Assembly: GCF_964204645.1 (NCBI RefSeq)
Contig: NC_134034.1
Coordinates: 5,430,914 to 5,494,913 of the forward strand
DNA: 64,000 nucleotides
Source of the DNA: Tubulanus polymorphus
Taxonomy: Eukaryota; Animalia; Nemertea
Direction: 5' to 3'
Of this stretch, positions 24,451-52,292 are shown piece by piece. The notes below the pieces were generated by a model. That model saw only the letters and a list, made by a program, of their open reading frames with translations. It was not told the DNA's origin and did not search any database. The translations under genes and the position numbers were made by a program. Numbering within the stretch: the stretch's first letter is position 1; each line of letters opens with the position of its first letter.

Positions 24451-24456
24451 AGTGAT

Positions 24457-25887: not shown

Positions 25888-26220
25888 GAACCAGCGGAGG
25901 GACTTTGCGTACAATTCGTAGACCGGACTGTCCTTGTATCTCGAAGTTGTTGTTATGTTATAGAATTTGTAAATAGTGTAAATTTATGTGACAGTTATCC
26001 AAATGTAAATAGAGATATCGTTGGCTCGCATGTAAATTCTCATACGGTAGATACATACCCTGATGTAAATAGTAACAATCATGTACCTGATGTAACTCCT
26101 AACAATTTCATTTCTGATGTACATAAGCGAAATATTAACACTTCTGATTTAAATAAGCAAAATGTAACTAGTACAGCAAACGCAGCAAACATAAGTGAAA
26201 TTCCTTGTATCAAATCATCA

Positions 26221-29200
26221 TTGAAGTTTTCTACGCTGAATGTATGTGGCCTTATAGCTAAACTCGATATCCCAGAATTCTGTGAATTTATTAGCAATAA
26301 TGACATCACATGTCTAACTGAAACTCACTTAGATGATTTAGACGGTAATTTAGGTTGTAGCTTGCCCGCCTCCCATATGGCGCACTTTAAAAATAGGAAA
26401 AAGTTTTCAAAAAAAGGATCAGGTGGCGTCGGTATCATATATAGGAAGTTCATGAAAAATAAAATAAAACCAATTTCGACTGACTCTCAGTTTGTATCTT
26501 GGTATTTATTAGATAAAGATTTATTTAATCGCGACAAACATGTACTTTTAGGTGTAATTTATATTCCTCCAGAAAATAGTCGTTATTATTCAGAAATAGC
26601 TATCAGAGAAATTGAAATAGAGTTATTGCAATTGAAAGTTGAGTATGATTTCATTGTGTTAATTTCTGGTGACTTTAATGCTCACACCGCTTGTATGCCA
26701 GACTTTTTGGAACCTGATAATCAGATAATTCAAGATGATAACTTAGACCCTATTGTTGACTCATTGATTAATTTAGGCGTTCCCACTACTAGAAATAATC
26801 AGGACAAAAGAAAGAATAATACAGGCTATCAACTAATAGATTTGTGTAAGAACCATTCACTAATTATCCTCAATGGCAGATGTGGCAATGATCAGACAGG
26901 TAATTATACTTTTAGGAACACTAGTGTCATCGATTATTTTGTGTGTGATTTAGAACTGTTTGGTTATGTTGAGGACTTTGAAATAATGCCTTTTGACCCA
27001 TTATTATCTGATGGACATAATCCTATTAATCTGTGCGTGTATACGAATTCTAGGGACACCATTGCTAGCGATAATGAAAGGGGTAATGAACACGCGAACT
27101 TTAAAACTTCAATTAGGTGGGTCAGTACTAGATCAAATCAATTTTTCCTGAATGTAGAATCAAGATTACGAGATAATGATTTAGATAAGTTACTGTTGGA
27201 CGGGTTGCAAGATCTAGGAATTCAATCGCCAGATGACATTAATGGACTTACCGATAGATTTGTATCTTCTTTATTATCAAGTGCTGAGGAGTGTAATTTG
27301 ATGTACCATAGAAAAAGTAGGAAAAGTAATAACTGCAAAAAACCGGTCCGCAACAGATGGTTTGGCAGGGACTGTAGAGATGCACAGAAGAAATATAATA
27401 ATATGAAAAAAAGATATAGGGGTTGCCCTACCCTTTCCAATTTTGAATCCCTTAAGAACTCGTCTAAAAACTATAAAAAGGTCATCCGAGAAAATAAGAA
27501 GAAACAAAAGGATGAATTTATTAAGGAATTGAGAGAATGCGAAATTAATAACCCAAAAAAGTATTGGTCGATGCTAAACTCTGCGAGCGGAACAAAAAAT
27601 AATGAGGCTAATATAGATATTGATATTTTTCTTGAACATTTTATGAGATTAAATGATTTGAATAATGTTAACAATGAAACCGATGACGGTGATGAGCCCC
27701 CAGACGTGGGTGACCATCCTGTCTATGACAATTATATTTTGAACAGTGATATAACCAGTGATGAGGTAATTAAGGCTATCTCTTTACTCAAAAACAATAA
27801 GGCCCCAGGCATTGATGGAATCACGAATGAGCTGTTGGGAGTTAGTCAGTATCCGTTTTTAGTTGATATATTACAAAAATTATTCAATTTAGTTCTTAAA
27901 ACAGTATATGTTCCAGAGATGTGGTCTATAGGCGTCATCAAACCCATTTTCAAAAAGAATGGCGATCCCTCTAATCCTGATAATTATAGAGGTATTACCT
28001 TAGTTAGCTGTCTTGGTAAATTATTTACAAGTATCCTAAATCAAAGATTGTCAACATTTCTAGATACGAATCACATTATAAGTGAAGCCCAGGCTGGCTT
28101 TAGATCGAAATATTCCACCATTGATCATATTTACACGCTTAAAACAATCGTAGAGCTGTATCTTTGTCAGGGAAGAAGACTTTTTTGCGCCTTTGTTGAT
28201 TTTAAGAAAGCTTTCGACTCGATTTGTAGGGTAAAGTTATGGCGAAAATTAATTGCTAACAATGTTAATGGAAACTTTTTCGATGTGGTCAAAAATATGT
28301 ATAACTCCATAAAATCATCTGTTGAATTAAATGGTTGCACGTCACAATACTTTGCAGCTGATAGAGGCTTAAGACAAGGCGAAAATCTCTCACCTATCCT
28401 CTTTTCGTTATTCTTAAACGACATTGAAGAATTTTTCATTGATCGTGGAAAACCGACTTTGTCATTTATAGAAAAACTAAATTTGAATCGTGATCAGGAT
28501 ATTGATACTTTACTGAATTTATTCATAATACTATACGCAGATGATACAGTTATTCTTGCTGAGGATGAGAAATCTCTTCAGCTACACTTAGATACCTTAT
28601 TTGAATATTGCGCGGCTAATGGTCTCACTGTTAACTCAGAGAAAACTAAAGTACTAGTATTTGCGCGAAGTAAATCCCGGATAAAAACGATTTCGAAATT
28701 TATGTTTGGTGATCAAGAGTTAGAGGTAGTTGAAGATTATGTTTATCTCGGAGTAAAATTCAATTGGAATGGTAACTTTGCTAAGGCAAAAAATTATCTT
28801 TACGATAAAGCTATCAGAGCTATGTTTTCGATCGTTCAAAAAGGCAGACGTTTGAAATTGCCCATAGATGTTATGTTTAAATTATTTGATACGTGTGTTG
28901 CTCCAATAGCCATGTATGGGTGTGAGATCTGGGGATATGAAAATCTTGATTTATTAGAAAATATTCATTGCTTCTTCTGTAAAATCTTAATGAAAGTGAC
29001 GAACAATTCTCGCAACTTACAAGTTTTATCAGAGCTAGGACGTTACCCTTTGAATATAGATGTTAGACGCAGGATGATTAACTTTTGGGTGAAAACAGTA
29101 TCTGGAAAGCAAACCAAACTTAATTCAATACTCTATAAAATATCTTTCAATTTATTTTTAAGGGATAAATTTAAGAGCCCTTGGTTATCATATATAAAGA

Positions 29201-29496
29201 AAACGTTTGATGACTGTGGTTTGTCCTGCATTTGGACGCAGCAATTCATGACTAACAGTAAATCTTTTTCAAAACGAATAAAACAGATACTCCGTGACCA
29301 GCACCTTCAAGAAACTGTATCTGCCATTAATACTAATCCGATATACACTAACTTTAGGCAATATAAGAATGATATTAGGTTAGAGAAGTATATAATAGAA
29401 CTTGGTGATGACTTAGGAACTAGTTTATTTGAATTTAGGGTCGGGTCCTATATTTTACCTGAGACCGGCTTAGATGTATATAGATCCCTCCAATAG
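26221..29496 (+). CDS. LINE ORF2, AP endonuclease plus reverse transcriptase (RTEX-like); C-terminus probably truncated
   Basis: LNVCG, LTETH, GDFNA, IDY, SDGH; FVDFKKAFD, GLRQGENLSP, LYADD; YGCEIWG; ends abruptly after ETG. Confidence 0.92.
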   Translation: MKFSTLNVCGLIAKLDIPEFCEFISNNDITCLTETHLDDLDGNLGCSLPASHMAHFKNRKKFSKKGSGGVGIIYRKFMKNKIKPISTDSQFVSWYLLDKDLFNRDKHVLLGVIYIPPENSRYYSEIAIREIEIELLQLKVEYDFIVLISGDFNAHTACMPDFLEPDNQIIQDDNLDPIVDSLINLGVPTTRNNQDKRKNNTGYQLIDLCKNHSLIILNGRCGNDQTGNYTFRNTSVIDYFVCDLELFGYVEDFEIMPFDPLLSDGHNPINLCVYTNSRDTIASDNERGNEHANFKTSIRWVSTRSNQFFLNVESRLRDNDLDKLLLDGLQDLGIQSPDDINGLTDRFVSSLLSSAEECNLMYHRKSRKSNNCKKPVRNRWFGRDCRDAQKKYNNMKKRYRGCPTLSNFESLKNSSKNYKKVIRENKKKQKDEFIKELRECEINNPKKYWSMLNSASGTKNNEANIDIDIFLEHFMRLNDLNNVNNETDDGDEPPDVGDHPVYDNYILNSDITSDEVIKAISLLKNNKAPGIDGITNELLGVSQYPFLVDILQKLFNLVLKTVYVPEMWSIGVIKPIFKKNGDPSNPDNYRGITLVSCLGKLFTSILNQRLSTFLDTNHIISEAQAGFRSKYSTIDHIYTLKTIVELYLCQGRRLFCAFVDFKKAFDSICRVKLWRKLIANNVNGNFFDVVKNMYNSIKSSVELNGCTSQYFAADRGLRQGENLSPILFSLFLNDIEEFFIDRGKPTLSFIEKLNLNRDQDIDTLLNLFIILYADDTVILAEDEKSLQLHLDTLFEYCAANGLTVNSEKTKVLVFARSKSRIKTISKFMFGDQELEVVEDYVYLGVKFNWNGNFAKAKNYLYDKAIRAMFSIVQKGRRLKLPIDVMFKLFDTCVAPIAMYGCEIWGYENLDLLENIHCFFCKILMKVTNNSRNLQVLSELGRYPLNIDVRRRMINFWVKTVSGKQTKLNSILYKISFNLFLRDKFKSPWLSYIKKTFDDCGLSCIWTQQFMTNSKSFSKRIKQILRDQHLQETVSAINTNPIYTNFRQYKNDIRLEKYIIELGDDLGTSLFEFRVGSYILPETGLDVYRSLQ

Positions 29497-30827
29497 TATA
29501 TATAGTATTGTAAATAGTTGATGTATATAATAGTATATATAGTATTGTAAATAGTTGATGTATATATATATTTCGTTACGTTTTCATTCTCTAAATTTTA
29601 ATCACTTTAGTGTTGTTTTGTAAATATTTGTATATACATGTGTAATAGTTTTCCTCCATATACCATGGAAATGGTTGGAGTGTAAATAAATCGTAATCGT
29701 AATCGTAATCGTAATCGTAGAAATCAGTTCGATTTTCCTCGCTGTCGAACGTGCTTGTGCGATTGTGTAGGTTCACGGCTTGGCTTTGTGCTGTAACCAT
29801 TACTTCGTGTTGAACTCTGTGTCCTACGTTGTGCAGTTCGGAGCCTGTCGTCCAGGGTATTCCAATGTGGAATAGGGGGTAGTCCACTGTGTGTAGTCAG
29901 ATCCAATGTGTTTGCGTAGATTTTTGAAGCCCACTGTGTGCGGGCGTCCACAATGTGTTTGGACAAAATTGCTGTAGCCACGGCGTGTTTGGATCAGAGG
30001 CTGTGTGCGTCTCAGGATTGTGTGCTGCCTGCTGGGTGCGGGATGGTGGGCTGAATGGAAAAGTATGGAAGAATCGTTACGTTTGAAATAAAGAGTGATG
30101 ATGAATAATGAATTTTTAGGGCAGAGAAAACTCGAGAGGTCGGGGTTGTCAATTCTCTATATTCTAAGTGTGTTTCGGTATACTTCGTTGGTCCCACTAT
30201 TGTGAGATTTATCGGTCAGGGGGATCGTTTATTATTTCGGTTTTTTTAATCTGTTTCGGGGATTTTATTTAGCGCATAAATCGCTTCCGTGGAGAGTTTA
30301 ATCGCGCTCAAAGCTTGATTTAGTTTGCTCCGTTCGTGCGGGACGCGTGACAAATACCTTATATTTTACAGTTTTACGCGAGCCTTTTGACTACTCAGAT
30401 CTTAGCATTTTCATTGTTCTTGTTTATGGCTGGCGTCGTGTTGCGTTTGCCCTTGGAGGCCTATTCCACGGGTTTTACTTGTTGGTCGATTTGTCTTTTA
30501 CCGTTTTCCGAGGATTAAATACAACTTCAAAGGATTTGGGCGTCTGAAACCTTTTGATTGTTTACGCTGGTAATAAAGTTTCAATTTGTTGTTTTATTGC
30601 GTCCGTTGTCATGGCTTCGGTCATGTTGGCTGGGGGTTAGTTTAGTATACTCCTTTTAGGGATGCAGTACGATCTATTTTGAGGATGTGGATTTTATGGC
30701 TCTCCAGTCCATTATAGCATTAAATAGTTTCAGCAGAGACTTATCACATTGGACTGGTATTTGGAATTAATCCGCCAATATTGGACTGTTTGAATCCTAC
30801 GACATTACGCCATAGGGACGTGCGAAC

Positions 30828-31327
30828 ATACCGACAAACCGATGAACCGACAAACCGACATACCGACAAACCGACATACCGACAAACCGACGAACCAACA
30901 AACCGACGAACCGACATACCGACGAATCGACATACCGACGAACCGACAAACCGATGAACCAACATAACGACGAACCGACAAATCCGTGCGTGGATTACCC
31001 TTATATAAAGTGGCTGGAAGCGAGGGGCTGCGTGTTTGCGTGGATAACCCTTGTATAAAGTGGCTGGGATCGAGGGGCTGTGTGGTGCGTGGATTACCCG
31101 TGTACAAAGTGGCTTGGATCGAGGGGCTGTGTGGTGCATGAATAACCCTTATATAAAGCGGCTAGGATCGAGGGGCTGCGTTGTTGCGTGGATTACCCTT
31201 ATATATTGTGGCTAGGATCGAGGGACAGGGTTTTTCCGTGGATTACCCGTGGCTGGATCGAGGGACTACGAGTATGTCGGTTCGTCGGTTTGTCGGTATG
31301 TCGGTTTTTCGGTATGTCGGTTTGTCT
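30828..31327. repeat. Composite repeat: inverted 9-mer arrays flanking a ~50-bp minisatellite
   Basis: (ACCGACAA/ACCGACAT)n, then (GGATTACCCTTATATAAAGTGGCTGGGATCGAGGGGCTG..)n, then (GTCGGT..)n. Confidence 0.85.
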
Positions 31328-32082
31328 TGAAAAGTACCGCAGACGAATTACTCCTTTTCAAAAAAAAAAATCTTTGAGCGGGGAACTATTCCACGCTATA
31401 CTGGACTTTAACCGATTTTATTTTCGACGATTGTGGTTACCGTTGGGTAACTATTTAGGGGTTGCTTTTCCTTCCCTCTGGTCATGTTACAGCGGCTGAT
31501 GATGCTTACAAACCATTGTACGTTTATATTTTATCTTTGAGCGATTCAGGGAAGTTCAGTACCGTAAGGCTTTTACATATGTTCTCAATATTGCTTCTTT
31601 GCGCTCGCCGTTTTGATCTAATGTTTAACTCCCCTTTATTGTTTGGGTTTGGGTGATGGGATGTTAGTTTTGGGGTTTTATGGTTTTGTCTTTTCGGAGT
31701 GTTTGGTGCGTCGCTTGGGCAGTACCGGTTTTTCCCCATATCTATATATTTCTGTCCGCACAACAGGGAGTAAGAATATTAAACTGTGGGAATTCCTGGA
31801 CCAATCAGCGAACGTCTTACTGAACAAGGAAGTATTTCGCAAGTCGATATATGACGTCATGCGCGTAAGCGCCAGAAATCGCTGGGCTGACCTGTGGAGT
31901 TCGGGGAGCGATATCGGACCCCTGACAAGCGAGGATGACGTCATGGCCACCGGGGCCTTATTCACCAGCCTCGCAAATTAATGGATTTACGTTGCATCAT
32001 TTGCGATATATCATTTTTATTTGCGATGCTTGGTATTCGAGTCGAATTCGACGGTTTCCAAATTTTGCGGATCCCCAGTGAA

Positions 32083-33866: not shown

Positions 33867-34790
33867 GGATCAAGTATAAAATGGTAATATAGTCCCTCAT
33901 CGCGGAAGCTTAAGACAAAATGAATGAGTGATTCAGTTTATAATTCTGTATTTGAATTATAACATCGGCAATCCCGACATTCCGACACTCCCGACATACC
34001 GAAAATCGGACATACCCAACAATCCCAACATTCCCAGCATACATGGGATTATTAGGAACCGAACGCCCCACGATCCCGGCACCTCTTTACAGGGGAATAT
34101 CAAGAACCGAACGCACCACGATCCTAGGGGAATATTAGGAACCAAACACCCCACGGTCCCAGCACCTCTGTACATGGGAATATTAGGAACCAAACACCCC
34201 ACGATCCCAGTACCTCTATACAGGGGAATATTAGGAACCAAACGCCCCACGATCCCAGCAGCTCTGTACAGGGAAATATTAGGAACCAAACGCGCCACGA
34301 TCCCGGTATTTCTCTACAGGGGATTATTAAGAACCGAACGCCCCATAATCCCAGCATCTCTCTACAGGGGATTATTAAGAACCGAACGCCCCAGCCTTAC
34401 AAATATATATTCTCAAAACAACTGGCCTGGTTAGATAATGGCTGGTATGTCTGTATGTAGGGTTGTATAGCATTGCCGGAGTGCCGGTATGTCGGGAGTG
34501 CCGGTATGTAGGGAGTGCCAGTATATCGGTATGTTGGGAGTGCTGGTATATCGGTATGTCGGGAGTGCCGGTATGTCGGAAGTGTCGGTATGTCGGAATG
34601 TCGGGTATGTCGGGAGTGCAGGTATGTCGGGAGTGCCCGTATGTCGGAATGTCGGTATGTTGGGAGTGCCGGTATGTCGGGAGTGCCGGTATGTCGGATT
34701 GCTGGTATGTCGGGAGTGCCGGTATGTCGGGAGTGCCAGTATGTCGGGTGTGCCGGTATGTCAGATTGTCGGTATATGTCGGGAATGTTA
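33867..34790. repeat. Composite repeat element (unique end, 9-mer array, 48-bp minisatellite, inverted 9-mer array)
   Basis: Inverted homologue of 37240-38188. Confidence 0.85.
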
Positions 34791-35707: not shown

Positions 35708-37134
35708 TTACTTGCGCCTGAGCTGAAGGCCAAGGCTGAGGTTTATTGGATCAAATATGATCAGCTGCCTGATCTGTGCCAATTTTGCCCGAGTCAAATC
35801 GTCTCCGCGTGATCGCGGCTTATGAGATCTTTTCTTGTTTCTACCCGACGATAAAGCAAATACATTCAGGAATGTGGCTGTCAGTTCTTCAGCTCCGTCT
35901 ATTCCTAAATGAGCTCCGCTCTTGACCATGGAATCGAAGAGGGCTCGAGTAACGCCAGCTTGGTTAGGGCGGAACTTTTCATCATTGTCGATATAAAAGT
36001 CTTTCGTTGCTATTACACAGTTTTTTAAAGTAGTTATTGACGGCCGTGGCCGATTCATTTAGTGTCGTTATTGTCTTGTTCCGTCCTCTACGGAGGAAGA
36101 TACTGGATACATGAATTTCAGAATTGGGAAATCTGGTTAGTAGTGTATTTGTAGATTTGGATAAGTCGAGAATAGTTTGACCATTATCGTCCTTGTTTAA
36201 AGAAATGTCATTTGTTCCTAGATGACAAATAACGCGTTTTACTAGGCTACTGTCTAATTTCGGGTTAAGCTTGAGTGATTGTTGATCAATACCATGAGCG
36301 GTTGCTCCTGGCAAACTGTCAACATGTATACTACTGGGCAAGTCAGTGAATATTAGGCGCCTGCAGTTAGAGTCTCCTCTGATCAGGTAATCCGCGGTCA
36401 GATTGTCAACGACAAGAGGCGTTGTTGTAAATTCAACTCGCGCTGAGTTTTGAATTGTGTCTGTCTGGTGATCACTGACACTATTTTCGTCCATATCGTA
36501 ATTCAATCGTTTTTGGGCATTCAGATTTTTTGTGACCATCTTCACGACAACGATAACAAATTATGCCGTACGGACATTCATTAGCCATATATGATCAGCT
36601 GGTTTTCAGTAAACATCTGAAGTACGGGTGATCAGTGTCCCCGCAATGTTTGCACTGTGTTTTATTATTGTCGCAAAAAAGCCTTACTTCAAATCTTCCA
36701 AACTTAGTCTCCACGGGTATAATATTTTTCACGTTTGACAGTTTTGCATAGATACATCCGTTTAAAATTTCGTTGTCTTTAATTTTGCCTCTTCGCAGTG
36801 AACCGGTTACTACGTTACCATACTTTTGTAGCTGATTAACAATGAACATGTCCGAAAGCTCAACCGGCGCGTCTTTAATAGTTATGTTCGTTATATCAAT
36901 TAATTCGTCAACTTTGCACGCTTTAATTTAACGATCTCTGATCTTAAAACCACTTGTAATGAAGTTTTCCATAGCTTCAAAATTGTTAAAAGTAATTCTA
37001 CACTCACCATTCTTAAAAAACTGAATGGCTCGAACATGTTTTGTGTTTTCTCCAAGCTTACTCAATATATCCTCCTCTGAAAATCTCGTGCCGAAACATA
37101 CAACGGTTAATGGTCGTTTTATATCAATTTTCAA
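35708..37134 (-). pseudogene. Decayed non-LTR retrotransposon ORF1 (RRM-like, CCHC knuckle, SGNH esterase)
   Basis: Consecutive frameshifted fragments; CKHCGDTDHPYFRC; GDSN and HLGTND blocks. Confidence 0.75.
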
Positions 37135-37239
37135 TCACTTCGCCTGACCAAAAACTATACTAAAAATGGTCCGAGTAAGTAGATCGACCCGACAAACAAT
37201 CTATCAGTGCCGCCATTTTGAATTTGATCCCATTTTGAA

Positions 37240-38188
37240 TTTGATGACATTCCAGACATTCCACACAGATATTCCAGTCATTATTTAAACAGGTCAGTTG
37301 TTTTGAGAATATTTATTCTAAAGGCTGGGGCGTTCAGTTCCGAATAATCGCCTGTAGAGAAATACCGGAATCGTGGGATGTTTGGTTCCTAATATTCTCC
37401 TGTACAGAGGTGCTGGGATCGTGGGGCGTTCGGTTCCTAATATTCCCCTGTACTGAGGTGCTGGGATCGTGGGGTGTTTAATTCCTAATATTCCCCTGTA
37501 CAGAGGTGCTGGGATCGTGGGGTGTTTAATTCCTAATATTCCCCTGTACAGAGGTGCTGGGATCGTGGGGTGTTTAATTCCTAATATTCCCCTGTACAGA
37601 GGTGCTTGGATCGTGGGGTGTTTGATTCATAATATTCCCCTGTACAGAGGTGCTGGGATCGTGGGGTTTTTGGTTCCTAATATTCCCCTGTACAGAGGTG
37701 CTGGGATCGTGGGCTGTCTGGTTCCTAATATTTCCCTGTACATAGGTGCTGGGATCGTGGGTTGTCTGGTTCCTAATATTCTCCTGTACAGAGATGCTGG
37801 GATCGTGGGTTGTCTGGTTCCTAATATTCTCCTGTACAGAGGTGCTGGGATCGTGGGGCGTCCGGTTCTTGATATTTTTCTGTACAGAGGTGCCGGGATT
37901 GTGGGGCGTTCGGTTCCCTGTAGAGAGGTGCTGGGATCGCGGTATGTCGAATTGCCGGTATGTCGGAATGTCGGATTGACGGTATGTCGGGAGTGTCGGA
38001 ATGTCGGGATTGTTGGGTATGTCGGATTGCCGGTATGTCAGGATTGTCGGGTTGCCAGAATGTCGGGAGTGTCGGAATGTCGGGATTGCCGATGTTATAA
38101 TTCAAATACAGAATTATGAACCGAATCATTCATTTTATCTCAAGCTTCCGCAATGAGGGACTGTATTACCATATTTTATACTTGATCC
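37240..38188. repeat. Composite repeat element with ~12 copies of a 48-bp minisatellite
   Basis: Unit TTCCTAATATTCCCCTGTACAGAGGTGCTGGGATCGTGGGGTGTTTAA. Confidence 0.88.
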
Positions 38189-39971
38189 AGAAAACGTGTT
38201 TTGGAAGTTTGACTCGCAATTACTTTACAAATTAAACTAAAAAAGATAATTGAAAACGGTAAAAAGTATATAAATTAGACCACATATAGATGTCAATTGA
38301 TCCTGTAAACTTCAAAAAATGTAAATCAAAATTTGTAAGAATTACGAACTTTTGAATGAGATGAGCAATAATTCAAGTTGAATTATCGGGAAGACGATAT
38401 CAATATGATAACTACACATCTCATTGTTTTGATTGTTTTGAAACGGATTATTTCATTCCTGCGCATTTTTGCGTTTCGTTTTAACAAATATAACGGCCTT
38501 AGGTGATCTTCACCGTGGGGGTCATGCATGAAGAAATCCTGATAGAATTTGTTAAGATGAAACCGCAACGTTTTGACTGTTGACTAACATGTCATCATCA
38601 GGGGGGATGTAGACATTCCAAGTGATTTGGGCGGGCTTTAACTCAGATGGCTGGCACTGAAAATACGAAACGTTGTGGTTTGACTTTGATAGATGTCATC
38701 ATATAAAATCTTATCGTGGAATTTCTTCATTTATCGGATTAGAGTGTTGTATTCGACTAATTCGGGTCATTGGTCGTTTAGATTGAAAATAGTTTACTTT
38801 TCGGCAAAGAAGGTATATACAACCGTTTCAGTCGCTATGGGAGAGATTCTCTGTATATATCAGCATCTTAAATCGGCACCTTTGTTGTTCCTAATCCGCA
38901 TTTCCAATTTAACGTACTGGTATAGTCTTACTCTGAATGCACTTCTGTCAGCGATTATGGTGCCACTGATATAAAAGTAGTTTTTATTTTACAATAATTT
39001 GAGAAAATGAGTTAAATTGGAAACAATTTATAAGTATCTTAAAATTCAGCGATTCATTGGCATCTTCAGATTTTTGCGATGCTAAGTTTATTACTACTAT
39101 AGAGGTCATTGCTTTCGGTTCCTGGTCTTTTCGTGGTCAGTGCAGTTTGTTTATTCGTTCATCAATCACTGTCCAGTGTAATTAAGCCAGTGTAATTCAC
39201 CTGGTAACTGATAGCTGCAGCTGGGCTTTTGATGACCTATATAAACAATTTACTTTAGAAATTAGGAAAGCATGTGAAACTAAAATTTCAGCCTTGTATT
39301 TCTTCTTATTAGACCAAAAGAGGTTTTTTCTATCAAATGTATACTGATTTCAAAATTACGTGAACATCTCAACTGAAATTATTTCAGTGTTTAATCAATC
39401 AATAATGATAATTGTTAGGCTTATTCTCACTAGCATGCTCAATGAGTAATGGGTATTAGATTAAAATGTAATGTACTATTATAGCCTACGCTTCTTATGA
39501 TCTTATATTAGATGTTGTAATATCATTTCAACCAAACTGTATAACTAAGAGACGAAAATTTACTTAGAATAACAACGGTTGTTTTTCTGAATTTATCATT
39601 TGTCACACAAATATATAATGAAATTTATTTCCCCTTAAATTTCGGACAATATCTAACAATATCTGGCACCAAAAAATCAGTCAAACTAGATAACTCGATG
39701 ATTCAGCAGTTAAATCGAGCCCAGACCGTCGAACAAACCGACAGTAAAATATCACCGAAAGTAAAAGGGAATGTGTTGTTCTAGATCAAAGGTCGAAAGG
39801 TCGAGTGAGTAAAAAAATGAAAAATAAATTCGAGTGTGCAAGAATTTATTTTTCATTTTTTACTCACTCGCCATCTCAACCTTTAATCTAGAACAACACA
39901 TTCCCTATTGCTCTTAAAATATTAATCTAATAACTTCTAAAATCAATTTTAATAAAAAATTTGATATTAAA

Positions 39972-40325
39972 ATGGAGAGTAAACAAGTACACAGTGAGAA
40001 CAACAAATCATTTCTAGATAGAATCAAAGATATCACAAATGCTAAATGTGTAGATTATAAATGTAAGAAGTTAACAGAATTAACTATTCATAAGCAATAT
40101 CTAATTACAAATATTGACACAGTTATTAACAAATATGGAGATAAATTAGTTATACACTTAGAATATGAAGGATTAAAAGAAAATAAATATAAATTCAGAA
40201 CATATTTACCGGATAGATTTCATAGATTATCAAGTGAAGATTTAGAAGAATTATGTTCAGGTGATTTCTATTTCATATATAAGGGTAAGAATGAAAAAGG
40301 GCACCATGAAATAGATTTTGAATAA
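39972..40325 (+). CDS. Homologue of the putative SSB-like gene of A
   Basis: Highly similar to 19780-20121; intact ORF directly after the terminal hairpin. Confidence 0.75.
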   Translation: MESKQVHSENNKSFLDRIKDITNAKCVDYKCKKLTELTIHKQYLITNIDTVINKYGDKLVIHLEYEGLKENKYKFRTYLPDRFHRLSSEDLEELCSGDFYFIYKGKNEKGHHEIDFE

Positions 40326-40339
40326 AATATGTAAAATAA

Positions 40340-41096
40340 ATGGTAGAATTAAAAGAATATAGAATATTTGTTGATTCAAGAAGACTTACAAATCATAAAT
40401 CTCATAATTTACTAGTACAATTAGATAGAGAATTTAAAAATTGTGTAGATTTGAAATTAGTAAATGTAAGTTTATGTAACTCATTTTATAATATATCGGA
40501 TAAAAGTATTGAACATAGAGTCTTTTTAATTCATGATAGAAATAAAAATAGATGGTTTCATCTTTATTTAAAACCAGGATTATATAATTTAGAAACATAA
40601 GCGCAAGAAATTAATAAAAGAGCACGCTCAAATGGGTGCATCTGCTGGATTTGGATTAAGACTGATTAAAAGTGATAGCTCTGATAAAGTAAGAATAAAA
40701 TTAGGAAATGAAGATCAACATCAATTTCTAGTTAAAAAACCTTTAGCTTAAATTTTAGGAATAACCCCAGATGTAAGGATACGTAATGCTGATGCTACAC
40801 CAAACTTAATACCCTTTACGCACTTTAATATTTATTGCAATTTAATTGACCCTACAAAGGCATTTGATACAACTAAAGATACAATTTGTAATTCTGGTTT
40901 ATTGAATATTCTACCATTGAAGAATGTTAAAGAATTTGGAACGCAAATAAATTATGATTTAGCCGAGTGTGATTCCAAACCTTGTATTCCTCAATTTAAT
41001 GATTTTAGATTAGAAATTAGAAATCACAATGGATACTTAATTGATTTAAATAATTTCCCTGTAATTTACGAATTAGTTATAAGATGTAAAGAGTAA
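40340..41096 (+). pseudogene. Minor capsid (penton) pseudogene
   Basis: Homologous to 19010-19762; premature stops. Confidence 0.85.
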
Positions 41097-41113
41097 TTTT
41101 TTTCACTATATAA

Positions 41114-42926
41114 ATGAATATAACTGTTGGACCGAGTGTATGTTTTGGGTTTGATTTTAAACATGGTAAAGAAATGAGAATTAAACTAAATTATGTAATT
41201 ACTGATATTAAACGTCAATCATTTAATAATGCATCAATGATTAATAAAAGAGATCATAATATAAAAAAAGAAATTGATTTAAGTAAAACACCCTTAGAAT
41301 ATTATGAATGAAATGAAAATGGAATTATCGATGATATTAAAAACATATTAACTGAAATATATGATAATCGTAAAAGTAGTAATGAAATAAATGTTGAAAT
41401 AATCATAAATAAGATAACTAAATATTCTGAACTAGGTGATTTTTTTGATAAATAAATGAGTGATAATAAGTGGATAATAACCGGTTTATATAATGGAGCA
41501 TCATTATCAGTGGGGACTGTTGGTTATACCAGGGAAGTGTGATGATCTCATCACACTTCCCTGGTTATACAATGGTATTAAAAAAAGTATTTAGAATGGG
41601 TAGTATTAATGTTGATAGATTTGATATCAATGATATTTTAAAATTAACATTAGCAGTTACTTTATCTAATTTAACAATTGATTATTTGGAAAAACAAAAA
41701 TATATTCCTCATATATAAACGCGTAATTTTTTTGTTAAATAAATGGCATCTGCAATTATAAATATTATAGGATCGGCAATTGTTAACGCTTTGGCATTTA
41801 CTGGTGGTGGATATTTATTTAAGCATATTGATAAAAATGGATCATTATCAGAACAAAAAAGACAATTTAGCATTAGAGAAATATAATAAAGCAGCAGAAG
41901 AATATAATGAAAAATGACAAAACTATATGGATTACATCGATAAAGAATTATATAATCAGAAAATTTCACATAGAGATTTTCAATCAGTCGATGATGCAAT
42001 GAGTTTATATAATGCAGTAACAAATTTTAGTAGAAAAATTACATCTATATAAACCTAAATTATCAGATTATTATACCCCAAGTAGTGAACAGAAGAAATA
42101 TGAAATAATTTGGATTTTAGGTGGAACTGTTATTGTTATATTTGTAGCATATAAATTTACAAATTAATTATATATTATTTTTTGCTAAATAAATGGATGA
42201 TAAAATTGATGGTGTTAATATTATTCCTCATGATATAAATAAAACTAAATTAAAATTATATTTGGAAAAAGAAATATTAGAATTTGAAAATGATTTAAAA
42301 GTTAAAAAGAAAAAATATTTAAAATCTAAAATTATATATTATTTCATTATCAGTGGTTCAGTTACAGTTAGTTCTGTAATAACATTTCTAGCATTATTCT
42401 CACCATTAACACCTTTTGTTATCTCAATTGGAGCTTTAGGTTCAAGTGTTTTAACCGGTATAAGTTCAAAATTAATGAAAAAGTAATAAAGAAAAAAATA
42501 AAACTAATATAAAAGAAATAAATAAATTAAAAAATACATTTAATTATATAATAAGTTTAAATGGTAATATAACAGTTGAAGAACAGGATAAATTATTAAA
42601 AGAATTAATAAATTATTAATTTTTTCATTATATTAATGGGGTTTTCAAAATCTTTCCAATATAATAAATCAATCAAATATAATATTCCTGCAATAGATTT
42701 TAATAAAAATATTACATATAAAAAAAATTTAGTTTTAAATTAATTAATTAATCTAGAAATTTATGTTACTGAAACACAGTTTTTTATTTCTAAAATGGAA
42801 AATATATTTCATACATATGAAGTTACTTTTACTCGAGATGAATATCATATATATATATAAAGTAAAATCTAATATGAAATATTGGCAGAACCAATTAGAT
42901 TTTGCTGTTTATTGTGCAACAACTGG
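41114..42926 (+). pseudogene. Decayed block of small structural-region genes (113, 73, 140, 144, 74 aa and start of the 382 aa homologue)
   Basis: Collinear with A from 18992 down to ~17220; stops and frameshifts. Confidence 0.85.
41530..41563. mobile_element. 34-bp palindromic insertion with 7-bp TSD (probable transposon excision footprint)
   Basis: CAGGGAAGTGTGATGA-TC-TCATCACACTTCCCTG flanked by GTTATAC; absent from the homologous gene in A. Confidence 0.8.
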
Positions 42927-42927
42927 C

Positions 42928-42980
42928 AAAAACAATACAATTGAATAAGCAACACTAGCTAATTCAATTGTATTGTTTTT
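42928..42980. repeat. Hairpin resembling the apex of A's terminal palindrome
   Basis: 19-bp perfect arms AAAAACAATACAATTGAAT / ATTCAATTGTATTGTTTTT. Confidence 0.8.
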
Positions 42981-43816
42981 CTAATGTTTTTCTAATATTT
43001 CTTATTGATACTACATTACTTTACATTTGACTAAAATAATATTAGAAAAACTGTACCTTGAATAACTTTGTATCATCTTGTATTATCCTTGTCAAATCTA
43101 AAGAAATCTGATATCATGTATGAATAAATTACTTCTGTGACTTCAATTTCAGAAATAAAGCATAATATGTATTTCAATACCTTCAATACGTAATTTAATA
43201 CATTGATACCTCAACCCCCTTTTTTAACATAAATATAATTTACTCACTTTCATACATTTCAGCGAATATATTTTATATTTTCCACCCAATTTAACAGTCG
43301 ATTTCTTATTTTGATTCATACAGTTTATCATCTAATTTATGAATATATCTATGAGTTTTTAAACTCTTTAAATTTTTAACTTTTTAAATTTTTATATCTT
43401 TTATTACAAATTTCACAACACTTAATATTATTAATTCTATCTGAAATATAATTTATATTTTCTTTCAATTCTGTATATCTAATTTTACAGCTATCATAGA
43501 ATTCTAAAAACTGCCTAATACTATAAATCGTCTGTTTTAATCCTCTAATTCTTTTAAGTCATTAACTTTTTTATTGTTATTTTTTATGATTATTTTTATT
43601 TCCATTTAATTTTTCCAATTTCTAACTCAATTTAATATTTTCATTCATCAAATCTTTTGAAATATTTTCACAGTAAAAGTAAAGTGCAGCCAATATTAAT
43701 CCTCCAGCAACTAAATAATGTTTCAAATCACTTTTCCCAGTTGGAATGAAACCATCCATTTATTTAAGAAAACAATTAAACAGTTTATTAAATATTAAAT
43801 ATTTATACGTTTCAAA

Positions 43817-46079
43817 TCAAATAACAATTAAACTTACTACTAATTTTTTATCCCGCTGAGAATTATATTTTTGCTTGTGCGTGATCAATTTCATCAACTG
43901 ATATTCTTTTATATTATTCTTAACCATTTCTTTATCGAAAAATTCATTTGATATGTAAATATTTTCATCATTATGAATTAAAATTAGATGGCATAATTGA
44001 TTTCTAAAATATCTAGGATTAATGAAATCAATAGTATATTCAGAATTATCTTTCAATAGTTCTAAACGCTCGCATTGCTTAATTTTCATATTGTTAAGAT
44101 TTAGTTTTCTTAAATAATCAGATTCTTTACGTATATCACATACATTTATAAAATCATTTGAATTTATCTTTAAATATTCAGTATATTTTTTCATCAATTC
44201 AAAATCCATTTTATCAATTATTTCAAAATGATTATGTGTTATCTTCTTTACTTGGAAAATAGGTTTTTCTAATTTTGATAAAATTAAGTGTCTATCCGGG
44301 CTATGAACTCCTATTTTTAACTTTCTAATAATGTTTTCTATCGAAGACAATTCAAAATAAATATTATTTAATACGTCTAATTGTAATGTTTTAATCAATA
44401 ATTCTCTTAAATCAGTAGTAGTTTCAAATAAACCTTGATCTGTTAAAATATAACTGAAATAAAGATCTGTTATACATTTACATTTAGTTGAAAAACCTCT
44501 AATTTCAAAAATTGTCTTATTTTCAATTCCAGATATTTTAGGAGTATAATCATTTATTTTAACATCAGGAATTATTTCAAGTTTTTTAAATTCTGTCTCA
44601 AATAATTTATTATCAATATCTAATTGTTGCTTTAATTCATTACAATTTTTATTTCTATTTTCATCGATATCTTCTTGAAATTGTTTAAGTTCTTTCATTT
44701 CTTCTAATTTTTTTAATTCACTTTTAGATAATCATTTTAAATCAAAATCTTCTTCAATATCAAGTACATCTAATTTATAAAAAGGTTTAGATCTTATATT
44801 GTATCTCTTTCTTAAAGTTGTAAAACTAATTCCTGTTTCACGTAATTTAAATCTAAATATAAATTTATTCAATACTGTAAACATTGAATTAGTTGCTCCT
44901 TCAGTTTTAATATATTATTTTGCTTCAATAATGAATTCTGATTTATCATCATTTTGATCAATTGTGAGGTATAAACATGGGATATTCTTGATTGTAAACA
45001 TTGGTGAAATGAGTAAATAGGAAGACTCTTCAATATTTTTACTTATCCTAGATTTATATCCTATAAATTTCCTTGCTAATAAATCACCATAATAACAGAA
45101 ATAAAAGCATTTTTCAATCAAATCGTAAATACATACAGTCTGTTTAACTTCATCAAATAATGATTTAAGTTGTAAATATGCGGGTGAATAGTAAATATTT
45201 TGTTCTTTTAAGTATTGTTTTATTTTTTCCATCACTTATAATCCTCTTTTAAATGAAATACTTGTTATTTCAATTCTAATCAATCCTGTTTCAATTGATT
45301 TTTCAAATGATTCTTTCAACCTTTCTTGATAGCAATTTATGTAACTCATTAAATTTGAACCGAAATTTATATTTACACCAGGAGATTTGAATTGACATGC
45401 TATTCTATTATAACTCTTTATTTTATCATCCTTATGTAATGCTGAAACACAACTATTGGAAAATTCTTTTAGAACTTTATATTTTCTATTTTCGAACATT
45501 GATTTTATTTCAATCTGAATTAAATGATCCTTTAAAATCTTGTGTCACATCTACATCTAATCTACTGTAATTTTTTTCATTTGATAATGTTTCAATATTA
45601 TCCATTTTCTGTATTAATTCATTTAAATTTTGATTGCATAATGAAATTTTAAATACAGCAATATAATCAGTTAATTTTAATTCTTGATTAAATCTACTTA
45701 AGATATATGATTTTGAATTATCATCATGAATTGTTAAAACACGTGTAATTTTTATAGCTAAGTTATCCAATATAATGTTTCCTCGATTAAAACATTCTTT
45801 AATTTCATAATGTATTATCTTTCTCTGATTAACGTTAAGAAAAGTTTTCCTATTTTCTTTAATAATTTCTTTTTCTAACATGATTTTATATAGCATTATA
45901 TTATCGCAAAATATATCTGACGTTTATATTAATTATCTATTTTCAGATTTATAATACTTATTTATATTTACTCCTGAAATATCAGCTAAATTATCATTCA
46001 CAGTTAAATAATATAATATTGAATTTATATATTTATTATTCATGTCCTTCGCGGGAACTTTAATTAACGTTGAGCACAT
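43817..46079 (-). pseudogene. Putative Rep_trans-like rolling-circle replication initiator (~750 codons, disrupted)
   Basis: Four listed ORFs join through stops and frameshifts from a TAAATG at 46079; ordered motifs ILDNLAI, SRLDVDVTQDF, KIKSYNR, GLIRIEIT. Confidence 0.55.
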
Positions 46080-46673
46080 TTATATATCAAATTTTTATAA
46101 AAATAAGTTAAAATTCAAAAAGAGTTCGCTGAAACCTTACGTTTTAAAATATTTCTTTACCCTTATTGGTGATATCTTTTATTCTATCTAGAAATGATTT
46201 GTTGTTCTCTCTGTGTACTTGTTTACTCTCCATTTTAATATCAAATTTATTATTAAATTGATTTTAGAAGTTATTAGATTAATATTTTAAGAGGGAATGT
46301 GTTGTTCTAGATTAAAGGTTGAGAGGGCGAGTGAGTAAAAAATTAAAAATAAATTCGAGTTTGCGAGAAAAATATAATAAAGCTGCAGAAGAATACAGAG
46401 AAAAGAGACCAAACTATATGGATTATATCAATAAAGAATTATATAATCAGAAAATTACACATAGAGATTTTCAATCAGTAGATGAAGCTGTGAGTTTATA
46501 TAACGCAGTAACAAATAAAGAAAAATTACATCTATACAAACCTAAGTTATCGGATTATTATACCCCAAGTAAAGAACAACAGAAATATGAAATAATATGG
46601 ATTTTAGGTGGAACAGTTATTGTTATATTTGTTGCATATAAATTTACTAATTAGTAATTTCTTTTCTTAACAA

Positions 46674-47102
46674 ATGGATGATAAAGTTGATAATATTGAT
46701 ATTATTCCTCATGATATAAATAAAACTAAATTAAAATCATATTTGGAAAAACAAATATTAGAATTTGAAAGTGAAAGTGACTTAAAGATAAAAAAGAAAA
46801 AATATTTAAAATCTAAAATTATATATTATTTTATTATTAGTGGTTCAGTTACAATTAGTTCTGTTATAACATTTCTAGCAATATTCAGTCCATTAACACC
46901 TTTAGCTAAATCAATTGACGTGTTAGGATTAAGTTCAAGTGTTTTAACCGGAATAAGTTCAAAATTAAATATAAAAAGTTATAAAGAAAGAATAAAATCT
47001 AATATAAAAGAAATTAATAAATTAGAAAATACATTAGATTATATAATCAGTTTAAATGGTAATATAACAGTTGAAGAACAAGATAAATTATTAAAAGAAT
47101 AA
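46674..47102 (+). CDS. Two-TM protein homologue
   Basis: Highly similar to 17528-17962. Confidence 0.6.
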   Translation: MDDKVDNIDIIPHDINKTKLKSYLEKQILEFESESDLKIKKKKYLKSKIIYYFIISGSVTISSVITFLAIFSPLTPLAKSIDVLGLSSSVLTGISSKLNIKSYKERIKSNIKEINKLENTLDYIISLNGNITVEEQDKLLKE

Positions 47103-47370
47103 ATTAATAATCAATTTTTTAATTATATAAATGGCTATTAGTTATCCAAAAGCTTTCCAATATAATAAATCAATTAAATATAATATTCCTGCAATAGATT
47201 GTAATAAAAATATTTCATATAGAAATGAAGTTTTAAATTCATTAATTAATTGAGATATTTATGTTACTTAAACTAATAATTTTAATGCAAAGATGGAAAA
47301 TATATTTCATGTATATATAATTAATTTTAAAAAAATGAAAGATGAAAAACAATGGTTATTAAAATCTAAT

Positions 47371-48305
47371 ATGAAGTATTGGCAGAACCAATTAAATTTT
47401 GCTGTTTATTGTGCTACAACAGGTGTGGTATAAGTTGGAATGATCATTTGAATAATTCCAAATATAAATTAATTCAAAGTTTATTTAGATTCCATACATA
47501 CTTTCAAATAAGATTAATATTAAATGAATTAGAGACCCCTTTGCCAGGATCTAGATATTTTAAAGAATTAGATAATAATATCAATTTATCAAAGTTTTAT
47601 AAAATTTGTAATGAATTTGATATAGATATAAATCATTCTGATTTTAGAACTAAAATCGGAACAATAAGATCTTTTCCTTGCCCTAAAAAGATTGCAGAAT
47701 ATTGTGCACTTCCCATACCATCTAATCATTTTTATAATATCTATAATAATAAATTAGGTTATGGTAAAATAGAAACTAAGGATTTAGAAACATTAAATTT
47801 CAATAAATTACCGAAATTCTATGATAATTTAAAACAAGAAAATAATAATGGTTGGGTTTATTTCATTTTAGATAATAGTGAAGGTTTTACTAAAACTGGT
47901 ATACAAAGAATAAATCAATCAATTAGAACTTATTTGATATGTATACTAGGCGCTCAAGTTGAAACAAGATTCCCGATAATTGGAAATTTAAATACATCAT
48001 TTGATACACAAAAACAATTTAAAGTATTATTTGATTCTATTCATAATGATAAAAATAGATCGATTCCAGAAAACATAGTTAGGTACCAAAATTATCTAGA
48101 TAAATCACATGTAAGATTAAATTATTGTATAGGGCCTGATGATTCTAAGATAAAAGATTACAATACATCAGAAAATATAAAAACTGATAATATTCAACAC
48201 GAAATAATTAGAACTAATAATGATAATAAATCCCATGAAAATACTAAATTAGCTATAACTTGTATAGGAATTGTAATTGGAGGAATATTATATTCTAAAT
48301 TTTAA
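47371..48305 (+). pseudogene. 382-aa protein homologue with frameshift and internal deletion
   Basis: Homologous to 16123-17271. Confidence 0.85.
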
Positions 48306-48320
48306 TTTTTTATTATATAA

Positions 48321-50018
48321 ATGGATGAAGGAATTCCATTGGATGACATGGATCCTTTAGATGAACCTGGTATAAGTGATGAACCACAACCTGAATTTAA
48401 TGAAACTAGTATCAATAATGATGATGGATCAGCATATAATAATAATTCAAATAATGATGAAGATGACGATCCATCATATAATTCTAGTTTAGCTGATGAA
48501 GATGATGGTGTAATTGATTACGAAACGCATGAAAAATTTAAAGAATATATGACAGCTCCCGAAAGGGAAGTTATTAAACCCATAACATTTAGAAAAGATT
48601 TAATGAATAGATTAGTAAATACAACTGATCCTTATTTGAAAGATCAATTATATGGAATGATAAGTAGAGTAATAGATTCAATTGTTAACGAATTATTACC
48701 AAAAGATGAAATTGATTCAGAAGGTGTTGTAATGCAAATTTTAAAAGATGACCCATTTTTCATGAATAATTAAGAATTTAAAAATGATGCATGGTTTTAT
48801 TATGTTGAATTAAATAACAAAACTGCATCAATACAATTATCTAGAATGGGTCAAGAAAATATTTCTGAACCTGGAATGCTAGCAGGTCTTCAATTGAACA
48901 TTCAAAAGGTGGTACAGAATTTCTCAGAATTATATGGAATACACTCGATAGAATAAATGAAAAAGAACCAGTTGGTATTTATATTCACAAATATTCACCA
49001 TTCAAAAATCCAAATTTAAATCCTACTTATGTTGACCCAGAAATGGAAGAGTATGGAGATCGATTAGATAAATTAAGAACTTCAACACCAGGAACATCGA
49101 GAAGAGATATTCAACAAATTGATAATGATTCAAGCCAATTACAATTAGTAAAACATTTTGATAGCATGTTAGATACAGTTCATTCATTTGAAGAAGAGAT
49201 GAATAGTATTTTAGATACACCTGGTACTAAAACTGGAACAAATCAAATGCCACATTTATTTAAAAAAAGATTACTTGATTTAAATGAAGAACAATTAAAA
49301 ATATTTCCTGAACAAGCACGTAGAGAAATTAAAGGTATGCAAGAATCAGCTGGTGAAATTGCTAATATTAAGATGAGATTTTCTAAAATAACCATGTTAG
49401 AAAAAGAATTAACTAATGCAAATGAAGAATTAAAACAAATAGAATTGAATAGAGATCTTCAAGTAATTGATGAAGTTGAATATGAATGCAAATGATGATT
49501 TAAAATATAACAAAGAATTACAGGAAAAAGAAAGAGATATATTATTGAAATCATATGATCATATGATAGAAAATTAAAAATTATTTTTAAAGATTTAATA
49601 CTAAAACCAAATTCTAAAATATCATTGAAAGATAGAATTAGATTATCATCTAAACTAGAAGGTAACAATTCTTTCAATTCTAACAGCTGTAACTATGATA
49701 TTCACAACAATTGGTTTAGCTATTTCAAATTCATTAAAATCTACGCCTACACCCAATAAACCGGATAAACCTACAAGTCATAATAATTCTATACAAGATA
49801 AAGTTAAAGATGGTTTAAAAAAATTAGCAAAATATCTATGGGAACTATCTAAACAATCTGCTGCAGCTTTACCCGGAGTTATAGCATCAATTGTTGGTTT
49901 TGTATTAAAATCTGCTGGAAATATTATTAACTTTGCTGCTGAACATATAATCTTATTTTTAATTACAGTTGTAAGTGCAATTATTTTTGGGTTAGTAAAT
50001 ATAATAAAAAATAGATAA
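48321..50018 (+). pseudogene. 533-aa protein homologue with a divergent N-terminal half
   Basis: C-terminal ~110 aa nearly identical to A; broken into three ORFs. Confidence 0.8.
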
Positions 50019-50038
50019 TTAATTTTTTTGTTAAATAA

Positions 50039-50945
50039 ATGAGTGGGAGTTATATAAATCCTTCTAAGAATTCTAGAATATCTTATGCTATTAAAGCAGA
50101 GAGATCTCATCATAAAATTACTCATAATCCTTCTAATATTAATCCTGATGAAACTTTATATGTTAGAATCCCGAGATTAACACAAAATACTTTTTATGTT
50201 CCAAATAGTATTTATTTATCAGCTGATATAAAAGTAACTGGCCATGATAATAATTATGTTGTAGATAATGTTGGGAGATATTTGATTAAAAATTAACTAT
50301 AAAGATAGGACCAGAAACAGTTTTCTCATTAGATGATTATAATTTATTTATGCATTATAAAGATTTATGGTTAACAAAAAAAATAGAAATACTATGATAT
50401 TTTAAGGTATCAATTTAGAAAACCATAATAAATTAAGATCAGAAGCTAATAATGCAATAATAACTAATGCTACAGATAATTTGATAAAAAAGATTTATGG
50501 AAGCAAATATAAAATTCCATTAGATTTTGAATTGATAAATAATAATGCACCTTTATATAAATATGCTATTCAAGAAAATATTATATCCGAGATAACATTT
50601 GCTCCTTTAAATGAAATTGTGCTATCTAGCGTTGTTAAAGATATGGGATATAAATTATCGAATATATGTTTAAAATATGATACAGTAACTGATGAAATTA
50701 TTGCTAGCACAATTCAAACTCAATATAATCAAGGATTTTCATTTTTATATGATTATATTGAAAAATTTAAAACTGTAACTATTAATGCAAATGATGAAAT
50801 AATTAATGAGAATATTAACTTCCAAAGAAGATCTATTAAAGAAATATATATAAATATTTTTTACAATTGCAACATATTCTAATGGTGCAATACAGGTTGA
50901 TAAGTATTATAATCCTGAAATAACAAAAGTAGAAATAACTATTGA
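50039..50945 (+). pseudogene. Major capsid protein pseudogene, 3' truncated
   Basis: Homologous to 13176-14423; frameshifts; homology ends at ITKVEITIE. Confidence 0.88.
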
Positions 50946-51637
50946 AATTTAATAAAATGAATATATTAGATTATCGGTGGTATAGAAAAACATTTACAGA
51001 TTATTTCTCGAGTAATGATATAGTTACTGTATTGAAAAAGTTATCTAACTTTAAACCAAATCTAACTTATGCAATGAACTTATTTGAACTTAAATATGAT
51101 GATTTTATAGAATTTTTAAATAAACATCCATCTTAAACTGAAATCGAAAATTTTATTCAAAAAATATTTTCAACAGCAACATTCAATAAATAAAAACTCG
51201 GGAATCATTTAGGAACTATACCAATGACAATGCAAAAGAATATATGGTTAGAAAACAATAACCTTAAAGAAAAATATGAAAATGAAAGAGTAATTTCTAT
51301 TTACATATCGATGACGGGTGTACGAATGGTGCGAATGGTACGAGTGTAATAATATATTATGTACATTATATATGTTGCCCTCGTACACTCATACAACTTG
51401 TACACTCGTACATAGATATATAGTTATTTTAAAAAAGGGGGTTTTAAGCATTCAGGTATCTAATACGTATGTAATATGTATTTAAGTATTTATGTATCTA
51501 ATACGTATCAATCAATATAACCTTTATTATTTTCAAACTTAGTTGAAAAAAAATAAAAATATATTAGTTGAAAAATTAAAATAAATAATATATTTTTTAA
51601 AAAGGGGGTTTTAAGTATTAATGTACCTAATACGTAT

Positions 51638-52292
51638 TTAATACGTATCTAATACGTACCTAATACGTATTAAGGTATCTAATACGTATCTAATACACAA
51701 ATGCAAATACACAAATTCATATTCATAAGGAAATTGTAGTTTCAGAAGTAATTTTGAACCTTTATTACTTTTTAATTTATTCATATATTCATCATGTAAG
51801 TCAGAAGGTATAATTTGATTTTCTTCCAATGATTGTTGCATCGATTTTCTATCTTTATTGTAGAATAAAACTAGAAATCTAATGTTTTCTCTAAAATCTT
51901 TAACAATTGATTTATATTTTTGATTTAAAATCCATGTTGTTATCCCAAAATGCCTACCAGAGAAAGCTAGATAACATAACTCACTTTCTCTAACTTTTGA
52001 ATCATGTAAATTAGCACAATCATCTATAATGAATAATGTATTTGAACCTTTATAAATATCAATTGCTATTTTAATACAATTATCTAAATTTTCTTTCACT
52101 GTTTTAGGATCTAATATAATAAACTTTTTTCTCTTAACTATGTCTCTATTATATGTTTTATTCATTTCATAAGTGGGGCAGAATAATATAAATAGTTTCT
52201 AACAAATCTAATATGAAATGCGTTTTACCACAGTTGATTACTCCAGTAACTAACATATTATGTGGTTCAAATATAAATAAATCTTTATTCAT
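51638..52292 (-). pseudogene. Packaging ATPase pseudogene
   Basis: Homologous to 11344-11955; deletion near the 5' end. Confidence 0.88.

Follow-up and report, generated by a model that had tools for sequence, protein, structure and literature searches.

In the window, that is, the whole 64,000-nucleotide stretch of the Tubulanus polymorphus genome analyzed here, we found that the apical loop is reversed in one of the four comparable terminal hairpins of Maverick/Polinton elements, namely at the left end of element B (B-left). The best explanation, to which we give a probability of about 0.6, is an inter-strand template switch, a copying accident of a rare sort, in a palindrome that probably keeps one orientation in normal copies. 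The lone reversed loop is probably an ordinary mutation of a known kind, and its value is that it points to orientation markers in the ends. The recurrence of hairpin ends in distant relatives is more interesting than the reversed loop.

In the outside-to-inside direction, the loop sequence is TCGCGCACACTC at either end of element A (A-left, 6818-6829; A-right, 24353-24364), GAGTGTGCAA for the 10-nt loop of the B-left palindrome (39832-39841, plus strand) and TCGCAAACTC at B's right end (46357-46366). Comparison of the two B loops gave a score of -6 in the same orientation and +6 when one was inverted (8 of 10 bases identical; the chance of identity of at least 8/10 is 4e-4 under uniform bases), and comparison of B-left with the A loop gave -5 and +5, respectively. 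No base was gained or lost at B-left, whose loop has 10 nt, as in B-right. Thus, an earlier sequence-only reading of this DNA, according to which the B-left loop is inverted relative to the A ends and B-right, proved correct, although A's two loops may count as one observation because its TIRs are 99.4% identical. The same reading had regarded B-right as an end with its loop in A's orientation; the orientation stands, but the end is not intact, as its outer arm is lost and the loop is fused to element C.

The TIRs of the Mavericks in the window start with imperfect palindromes of 153-187 nt. The A-left palindrome (6732-6916, plus strand; 185 nt) follows the TSD, the A-right palindrome (24264-24450, minus strand; 187 nt) precedes it, and the B-left palindrome occupies 39760-39912 (153 nt), with its apex at 39812-39861, where a perfect 20-bp stem surrounds the loop. 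The predicted fold of the B-left hairpin has an energy of -54.6 kcal/mol (z -15.8), equalled by none of 200 shuffles, and the A-left hairpin has a z of -17.7. Intact ends open with AGTA, and the end motif recurs at the inner edge of the palindrome. The B-left outer arm (39760-39831, plus strand) starts with AGTA and contains a run of seven A, two outer-type GGTCGA boxes (39791-39805) and the 20-nt perfect stem, and the inner arm (39842-39912, plus strand) has inner-type boxes and a run of six A, the length found in both B inner arms.

Outer and inner arms differ at fixed sites. Outer arms carry GGTCGA in box 1 and a T in box 2, where inner arms carry GGTTGA and a G, and the base preceding AAAGG differs as well. 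These three markers are outer-type in all three outer arms and inner-type in all four inner arms, and their sides are constant across two subfamilies with differing stems. The fourth marker is the triplet that follows box 2, which reads CTC in the two outer arms of A and TGA in every inner arm. At B-left it is TGA on both arms (inner type at 39806-39808 of the outer arm), with no reciprocal swap. The AAT-repeat and triplet asymmetries of A are alike at its two ends. The earlier proposal that the arm mismatches were not inverted holds for three markers, which keep their side in 7/7 arms, the triplet being changed on one side only. The proposed geometry, an inverted apex with the exchange inside the GGTCGA boxes, agrees with our results. 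We rejected a transfer of the whole hairpin at B-left, since it would be expected to move all markers, and three are unmoved.

In the template switch that we favor, a polymerase copying the outer arm would jump onto the other strand at the inner arm, copy back through the loop and then return, which would leave the loop inverted, and the same single step would probably overwrite the outer-arm triplet with the inner type. The outer switch point would lie at approximately 39802-39805 or, if the triplet is native to B, inside the 20-bp stem. Two features of B-left can be compared with such an event. First, the spacer was inverted in place between inverted repeats, as a 10-nt loop within a 20-bp perfect stem. 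Second, a one-sided correction of the arm fits the triplet but not the length of the A-run; as the outer run has 7 rather than 6 A, a conversion tract would need a further slip, or else the triplet would be native to B. Template switching, which the sequence-only reading had named as an alternative, fits the non-reciprocal pattern of the markers, whereas a simple crossover would be expected to swap the triplet reciprocally. Stem correction with spacer inversion, as well as inversion of the loop only, are outcomes of inter-strand switching documented in the available text of PMC5453318 and PMC8794818.

The timing would be at or after the last round of replication before insertion, because the ends of B differ and its TIRs have drifted by about 8%. 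This drift (65 of 71 columns identical between the inner arms and 117 of 128 between the body of the left TIR and the right TIR) would leave time enough for such an event. As for the role of the palindrome, a displaced single strand might fold the end back and remake a duplex terminus for pPolB; polinton pPolBs bear a terminal-protein domain and displace strands, as stated in the available text of PMC11161782. The putative outer and inner binding boxes would be fixed, so that the arms would not be exchanged in each round, and routine hairpin transfer appears unlikely because the markers are unswapped. The tendency to fold back would make the ends prone to template switches and breaks.

To assess loop orientation beyond the window, reads from one raw genomic run carrying the same species label (run X6, about 12/100 of the run) were aligned to 39640-40100, and another run (X1) was left out because it gave short matches only. 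Depth in run X6 was approximately 4 in the flank and 2587 in the loop, which implies about 650 related hairpin cores in the genome; the ends with B-type distal arms were estimated at about 74. The difference between these two estimates points to more subfamilies with the same apex and other outer parts. The loop is conserved among the genomic hairpin cores: among the listed variants, which reach down to a share of about 0.40, only two lie within it, carried by 1323 of the 2587 reads at 39835 and by 2198 of the 2531 at 39840.

Orientation has to be read indirectly, because reads may align to either strand of the palindrome. In 8 of the 15 listed joint rows (15 of 61), a total of 206 reads, possibly inflated by other subfamilies mixed into these rows, cover the outer arm and then resume within the stem in the reverse sense, on the other strand; 137-176 reads were expected to be informative for B-type ends. 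This geometry would correspond to an outer arm joined to a loop in A's orientation. The best read in each of the eight rows reaches 39783 or beyond, into the B-type distal arm, and 136 of the 206 reads run past the triplet, the other 70 ending before it. In addition, the 6-A run typical of B inner arms appears in 318 of the 1350 reads that cover the outer place, and depth over the distal part is 336-380 for the outer arm versus 217-246 for the inner one, both as expected if a loop in A's orientation pulls inner arms over. Another subfamily, whose reads are oriented only by the loop, showed loose ends in 429 reads before 39813 and 524 behind 39860; these mirror-image loose ends differ at 3 of 5 bubble letters, which speaks against a random loop orientation in this subfamily. 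Depth at the boxes (1619 at 39798 and 826 at 39873) is compatible with a range of mixtures, from a single orientation to equal shares of both, and reads whose loop is oriented as in B-left produce no joint on alignment and so escape the count. Overall, the reads of run X6 indirectly favor A's orientation as the dominant one among B-type ends.

Element A (6732-24450, unstranded) is a Maverick/Polinton according to the features set out for Polintoviricetes in the available text of PMC8097293. It spans 17.7 kb, has AG..CT ends and 525-bp TIRs, and is flanked on both sides by a 6-bp TSD, AGTGAT (6726-6731 and 24451-24456). Its pPolB gene (20150-24220, minus strand), with zinc fingers, an endonuclease VII domain and one in-frame stop near 21380, has homologues at E near 0 and 75-78% identity. 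More distant matches bear PF03175, a domain that Pfam did not match in the two pPolB fragments of the window. The element also encodes an RVE integrase with a chromodomain (10248-11351, plus strand; PF00665, E 9e-09), an A32-type packaging ATPase (11344-11955, plus strand; Pox_A32, E 3e-11), an endonuclease VII/HNH-like protein (8290-8964, plus strand) and a double jelly-roll capsid protein (13176-14423, minus strand), the last recognized by structure prediction and fold search. The capsid model (pLDDT 84.4) matched the capsids of PBCV-1, iridovirus, Sputnik and mavirus with E down to 3e-17, and a model from the single sequence (pLDDT 31.5) was set aside. PDB sequence searches with the capsid and pPolB queries gave no relevant match, and among the remaining ORFs Pfam gave no match, neither to a maturation protease nor to a minor capsid protein.

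Several observations concern gene arrangement. Element A has two endonuclease VII-like units, the free gene and the domain within pPolB (21383-24220). The first 100 pPolB codons fall inside A's TIR (6960-7262 and 23926-24220), and B's TIR contains the start of a 113-aa gene instead. The gene after pPolB is the 113-aa gene in A and an HNH gene in element C and in the related loci L001, L002 and L003, and TIR length and gene order shift together among these elements. An AT-rich motif common to 13118-13173, 20096-20151, 46208-46263 and 59491-59546 is found within TIRs and immediately ahead of several element genes; it is promoter-like and might be a recombination site.

Element B (39760-46366) carries its own TIRs, is 83-85% identical to A across 3 kb and is a shorter, older derivative. 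The rest of its left TIR (39913-40040, plus strand) contains the AT-rich motif and the start of the 113-aa gene. Its right TIR (46165-46366, minus strand) ends with the inner arm and the loop, which adjoins a gene of element C across a microhomology of 5 bases, GAGAA, including the last two loop bases. A third terminal palindrome, truncated and of another sequence type, lies inside B (42928-43020, plus strand). It has a 19-bp stem at 42928-42980, its outer arm stops after 19 bases and is fused to the start of a Maverick gene, its inner arm closes with ATTACT, as in the other ends, and its loop is too decayed for an orientation call (scores of -3 to -7). Both of these further junctions in B, at 42928 and 46366, fall at hairpins, showing that Maverick hairpin ends are unstable. 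Element C (46366-64000, unstranded) is a decayed Maverick copy whose left part is missing; it is 79-93% identical to A over long segments and closer to A than B is.

The window also contains other repeats. A Penelope-type element with reverse transcriptase and GIY-YIG (59929-61599, plus strand) is inserted in C's pPolB, and a LINE-type retrotransposon (25090-29496, plus strand) has an open ORF1 along with an endonuclease/reverse transcriptase ORF of 1202 aa. These LINE- and Penelope-type reverse transcriptases mark the DNA as eukaryotic and probably animal. An inverted repeat of 477 nt (4285-4761 and 5316-5792) is 95% complementary across a 554-nt separation. Tandem arrays with 8-, 48- and 73-base units occupy 192-913, 30782-31336, 33995-34772 and 37230-38041, and the arrays at 34126-34457 and 37262-37917 are inverted copies placed face to face. 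A 192-aa open frame at 35982-36560 (minus strand) weakly matches a GDSL lipase-like family in Pfam (E 0.002), under the curated cut-off.

Searches with pPolB yielded 96 loci, in which terminal palindromes recur at 28-78% pPolB identity. A strict palindrome scan recovered only L002 and L085 among the 96 loci, together with three ends of the window, and no match in five block shuffles; because the end lies outside the contig for most loci, these counts give no frequency. L002 (74-78% pPolB identity) has a terminal palindrome of 257 nt with similar boxes, and L085 (about 35% identity) has one of 129 nt at 5614-5742, running from AGTAGT to ACTACT. L083 and L084 share the end of L085, cut by the contig start, and the apex orientation is the same in all three; as L083 and L084 are 94% alike, this 3/3 is nearer 2/2. 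L001 shows only part of such a palindrome (z -2.4), L005 shares the boxes without forming a palindrome (z -0.7), and L090, L096 and L044 have TIRs without a single end-to-end palindrome. Palindromic ends are thus an old, non-universal trait of these pPolB elements.

Maverick ends or pPolB genes were also present in records labelled as archaeal or bacterial MAGs (L081, L082, L083, L084, L085 and L088), which are probably mis-binned eukaryotic viral DNA. Long hairpins lie beside or within some distant pPolB genes; those of L015 (467-630) and L056 (2286-2466) are probably MITE-like insertions, and that of L027 (1-271) is probably a fold-back artefact. The exact hairpin patterns were found nowhere in viral contigs or metagenome contigs, and the capsid queries had no relatives among viral contigs. 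A loose end-to-end pattern gave 18 viral matches, which we attributed to chance, none of the 18 having Maverick genes within 3 kb.

B also contains a gene broken by stops and a frameshift (43817-46040, minus strand), located between the truncated hairpin and the right TIR; the region between these two hairpin remnants is possibly a 3.4-kb single-gene element. The gene belongs to an unnamed family, for which an E cut-off of 0.001 gave 171 representatives. Many have 800-950 aa, and members occur in a mealybug genome and on contigs of 2-9 kb. The best-kept residues among 107 aligned members are D-x-T-x-D, R-x-K-x-Y-N-K and G-x-x-R-x-E, in agreement with a set of 46 members, and this order of motifs matches the conserved columns of 17 Rep_trans ORFs. 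Rep_trans (PF02486) rolling-circle initiators thus share with the family the order of their most conserved residues, but the family has D instead of R in the first motif, a Y-to-E spacing of 47 versus about 24, and a length of 800-950 aa. HHalign comparison with 4 and then 17 Rep_trans ORFs was not significant (probability 0.24%; score 17.1 versus 15.6 and 14.9 for unrelated controls), with the two first motifs aligned in register. None of the 46 members matched PF02486 among the 25 listed families, out of 43 with E up to 1. The family had no match in Pfam, ESM Atlas, PDB sequences, phages, viral contigs or 132 loci, and one weak match to a 'replication protein' in PHROGs (E 0.052). We therefore treat the likeness to Rep_trans as a resemblance, not a result.

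With regard to other explanations, the sequence-only reading had ascribed the inversion to the element's own replication or resolution, in the style of parvoviruses or poxviruses. Under such recurrent flip/flop, a fold-back or dimer junction would be resolved near the apex, both loop orientations would be routine and the boxes would stay fixed; the resolver would be a putative endonuclease VII-like activity or, in B-type ends, a putative nicking initiator. Palindromes are indeed kept at the very ends in relatives (257 nt in L002 and 129 nt in L085), and the endonuclease VII domain in pPolB and the separate endonuclease VII/HNH gene are candidate cruciform or junction resolvases. Both forms arise by junction resolution in poxviruses, according to the available text of PMC8956199. 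Moreover, B, the flipped copy, holds the broken gene with its Rep_trans-like motif order, a candidate nickase, and a minority orientation below about 40% could escape the variant listing of run X6. However, only one of the four window loops is reversed, the triplet change is non-reciprocal, and A's asymmetries are identical at both ends. The markers keep their side in 7/7 arms, the reads lean to one orientation, and the distant subfamily has a single apex orientation at 3/3 ends. The link to Rep_trans is not significant and has no Pfam or PDB match, and a search for an element-encoded nickase found no HUH Rep. Thus, we consider recurrent flip/flop unlikely.

A more specific version, which we regard as quite unlikely, is that pPolB Mavericks replicate through fold-back ends whose apex is flipped at resolution while the boxes stay fixed, with B as a satellite-like element carrying a Rep_trans-like nickase. 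If true, it would mean a rolling-hairpin module within Polintons and an undescribed eukaryotic nickase of Rep_trans-like type.

Palindromes are subject to centre-break revision, and the host might have cut the B-left palindrome at its centre or base after insertion and rejoined it, or recombined its arms. In favor of such repair, both further junctions in B lie at the apex or arm of a hairpin, one of them with the 5-base microhomology, but there is neither deletion nor filler at the B-left loop, and a simple crossover would have exchanged the triplets between the arms, which makes host repair a doubtful explanation. An assembly or sequencing artefact is highly improbable: although fold-back artefacts occur in such data (L027 has a palindrome over coding sequence) and B-left's own flank plus loop is without a demonstrated spanning read, B-left has private substitutions (39840 differs from 2198 of 2531 reads), its arms are asymmetric, the other window hairpins mutually agree, and its flank is present in run X6 at a depth of about 4.

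Apart from the template switch itself, the ends deserve attention as the chief clue to how Mavericks excise and replicate. In pPolB-bearing elements, long palindromes at the termini whose outer and inner boxes are fixed suggest a fold-back step, which is unneeded in the usual protein-primed model. Loop and box orientations over the several hundred ends of this one genome could serve, without any need for culture, as built-in markers for distinguishing hairpin transfer, junction resolution and orientation-keeping replication.

The elements described here resemble known Mavericks/Polintons in their pPolB, RVE integrase, A32 ATPase, double jelly-roll capsid, length of 17.7 kb, long TIRs and 6-bp TSD, as well as in an AGT-type end motif (AGTAAT here and AGTAGT in L085), as far as these features are given in the available text of PMC8097293 and PMC11161782. 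Unlike described Mavericks, each TIR here opens with an imperfect palindrome of 129-257 nt whose end motif is repeated at the inner edge; the words 'palindrom' and 'hairpin' have no occurrence in the main text of PMC8097293. Neither palindromic ends nor flipping loops turned up for pPolB Mavericks in the available text of the literature, including PMC11296320, although Repbase entries and preprint supplements may describe such ends. Palindromes inside TIRs adjoining the TSD, with hairpin priming proposed, are described for virophages of Halocafeteria seosinensis and one PLV subtype in the available text of 10.64898/2026.07.28.741278, and palindromic repeats are marked in a figure of 10.64898/2026.10.13.758929. 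The Halocafeteria elements and those described here have TIR palindromes by the TSD in common, together with RVE integrases, but those of Halocafeteria (52 nt in the example given; 10.64898/2026.07.28.741278, whose available text does not discuss loop orientation) occur in a protist and mostly with non-pPolB replicases, whereas the palindromes here are longer, accompany pPolB, have conserved asymmetric boxes and come from a probable animal host. The hairpin-ended pPolB Maverick is the novel part, palindromic ends having already been reported for protist virophages and PLVs.

The template-switch inversions described in the available text of PMC5453318 and PMC8794818 resemble B-left in that a loop is inverted in place within a near-perfect stem, with or without one-sided arm correction; they come from human, rRNA and miRNA sequences with loops of mostly 4-8 nt, whereas the present case lies at the end of a viral element. 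The termini of AAV and vaccinia are likewise imperfect hairpins with two possible orientations, in which mismatches flip along with the hairpin and the ends are found in all four combinations, according to the available text of PMC5948225 and PMC8956199. In contrast with these termini, three markers at B-left stay put and one orientation seems dominant. The left end of minute virus of mice, a single-orientation end, is the closer analogue.
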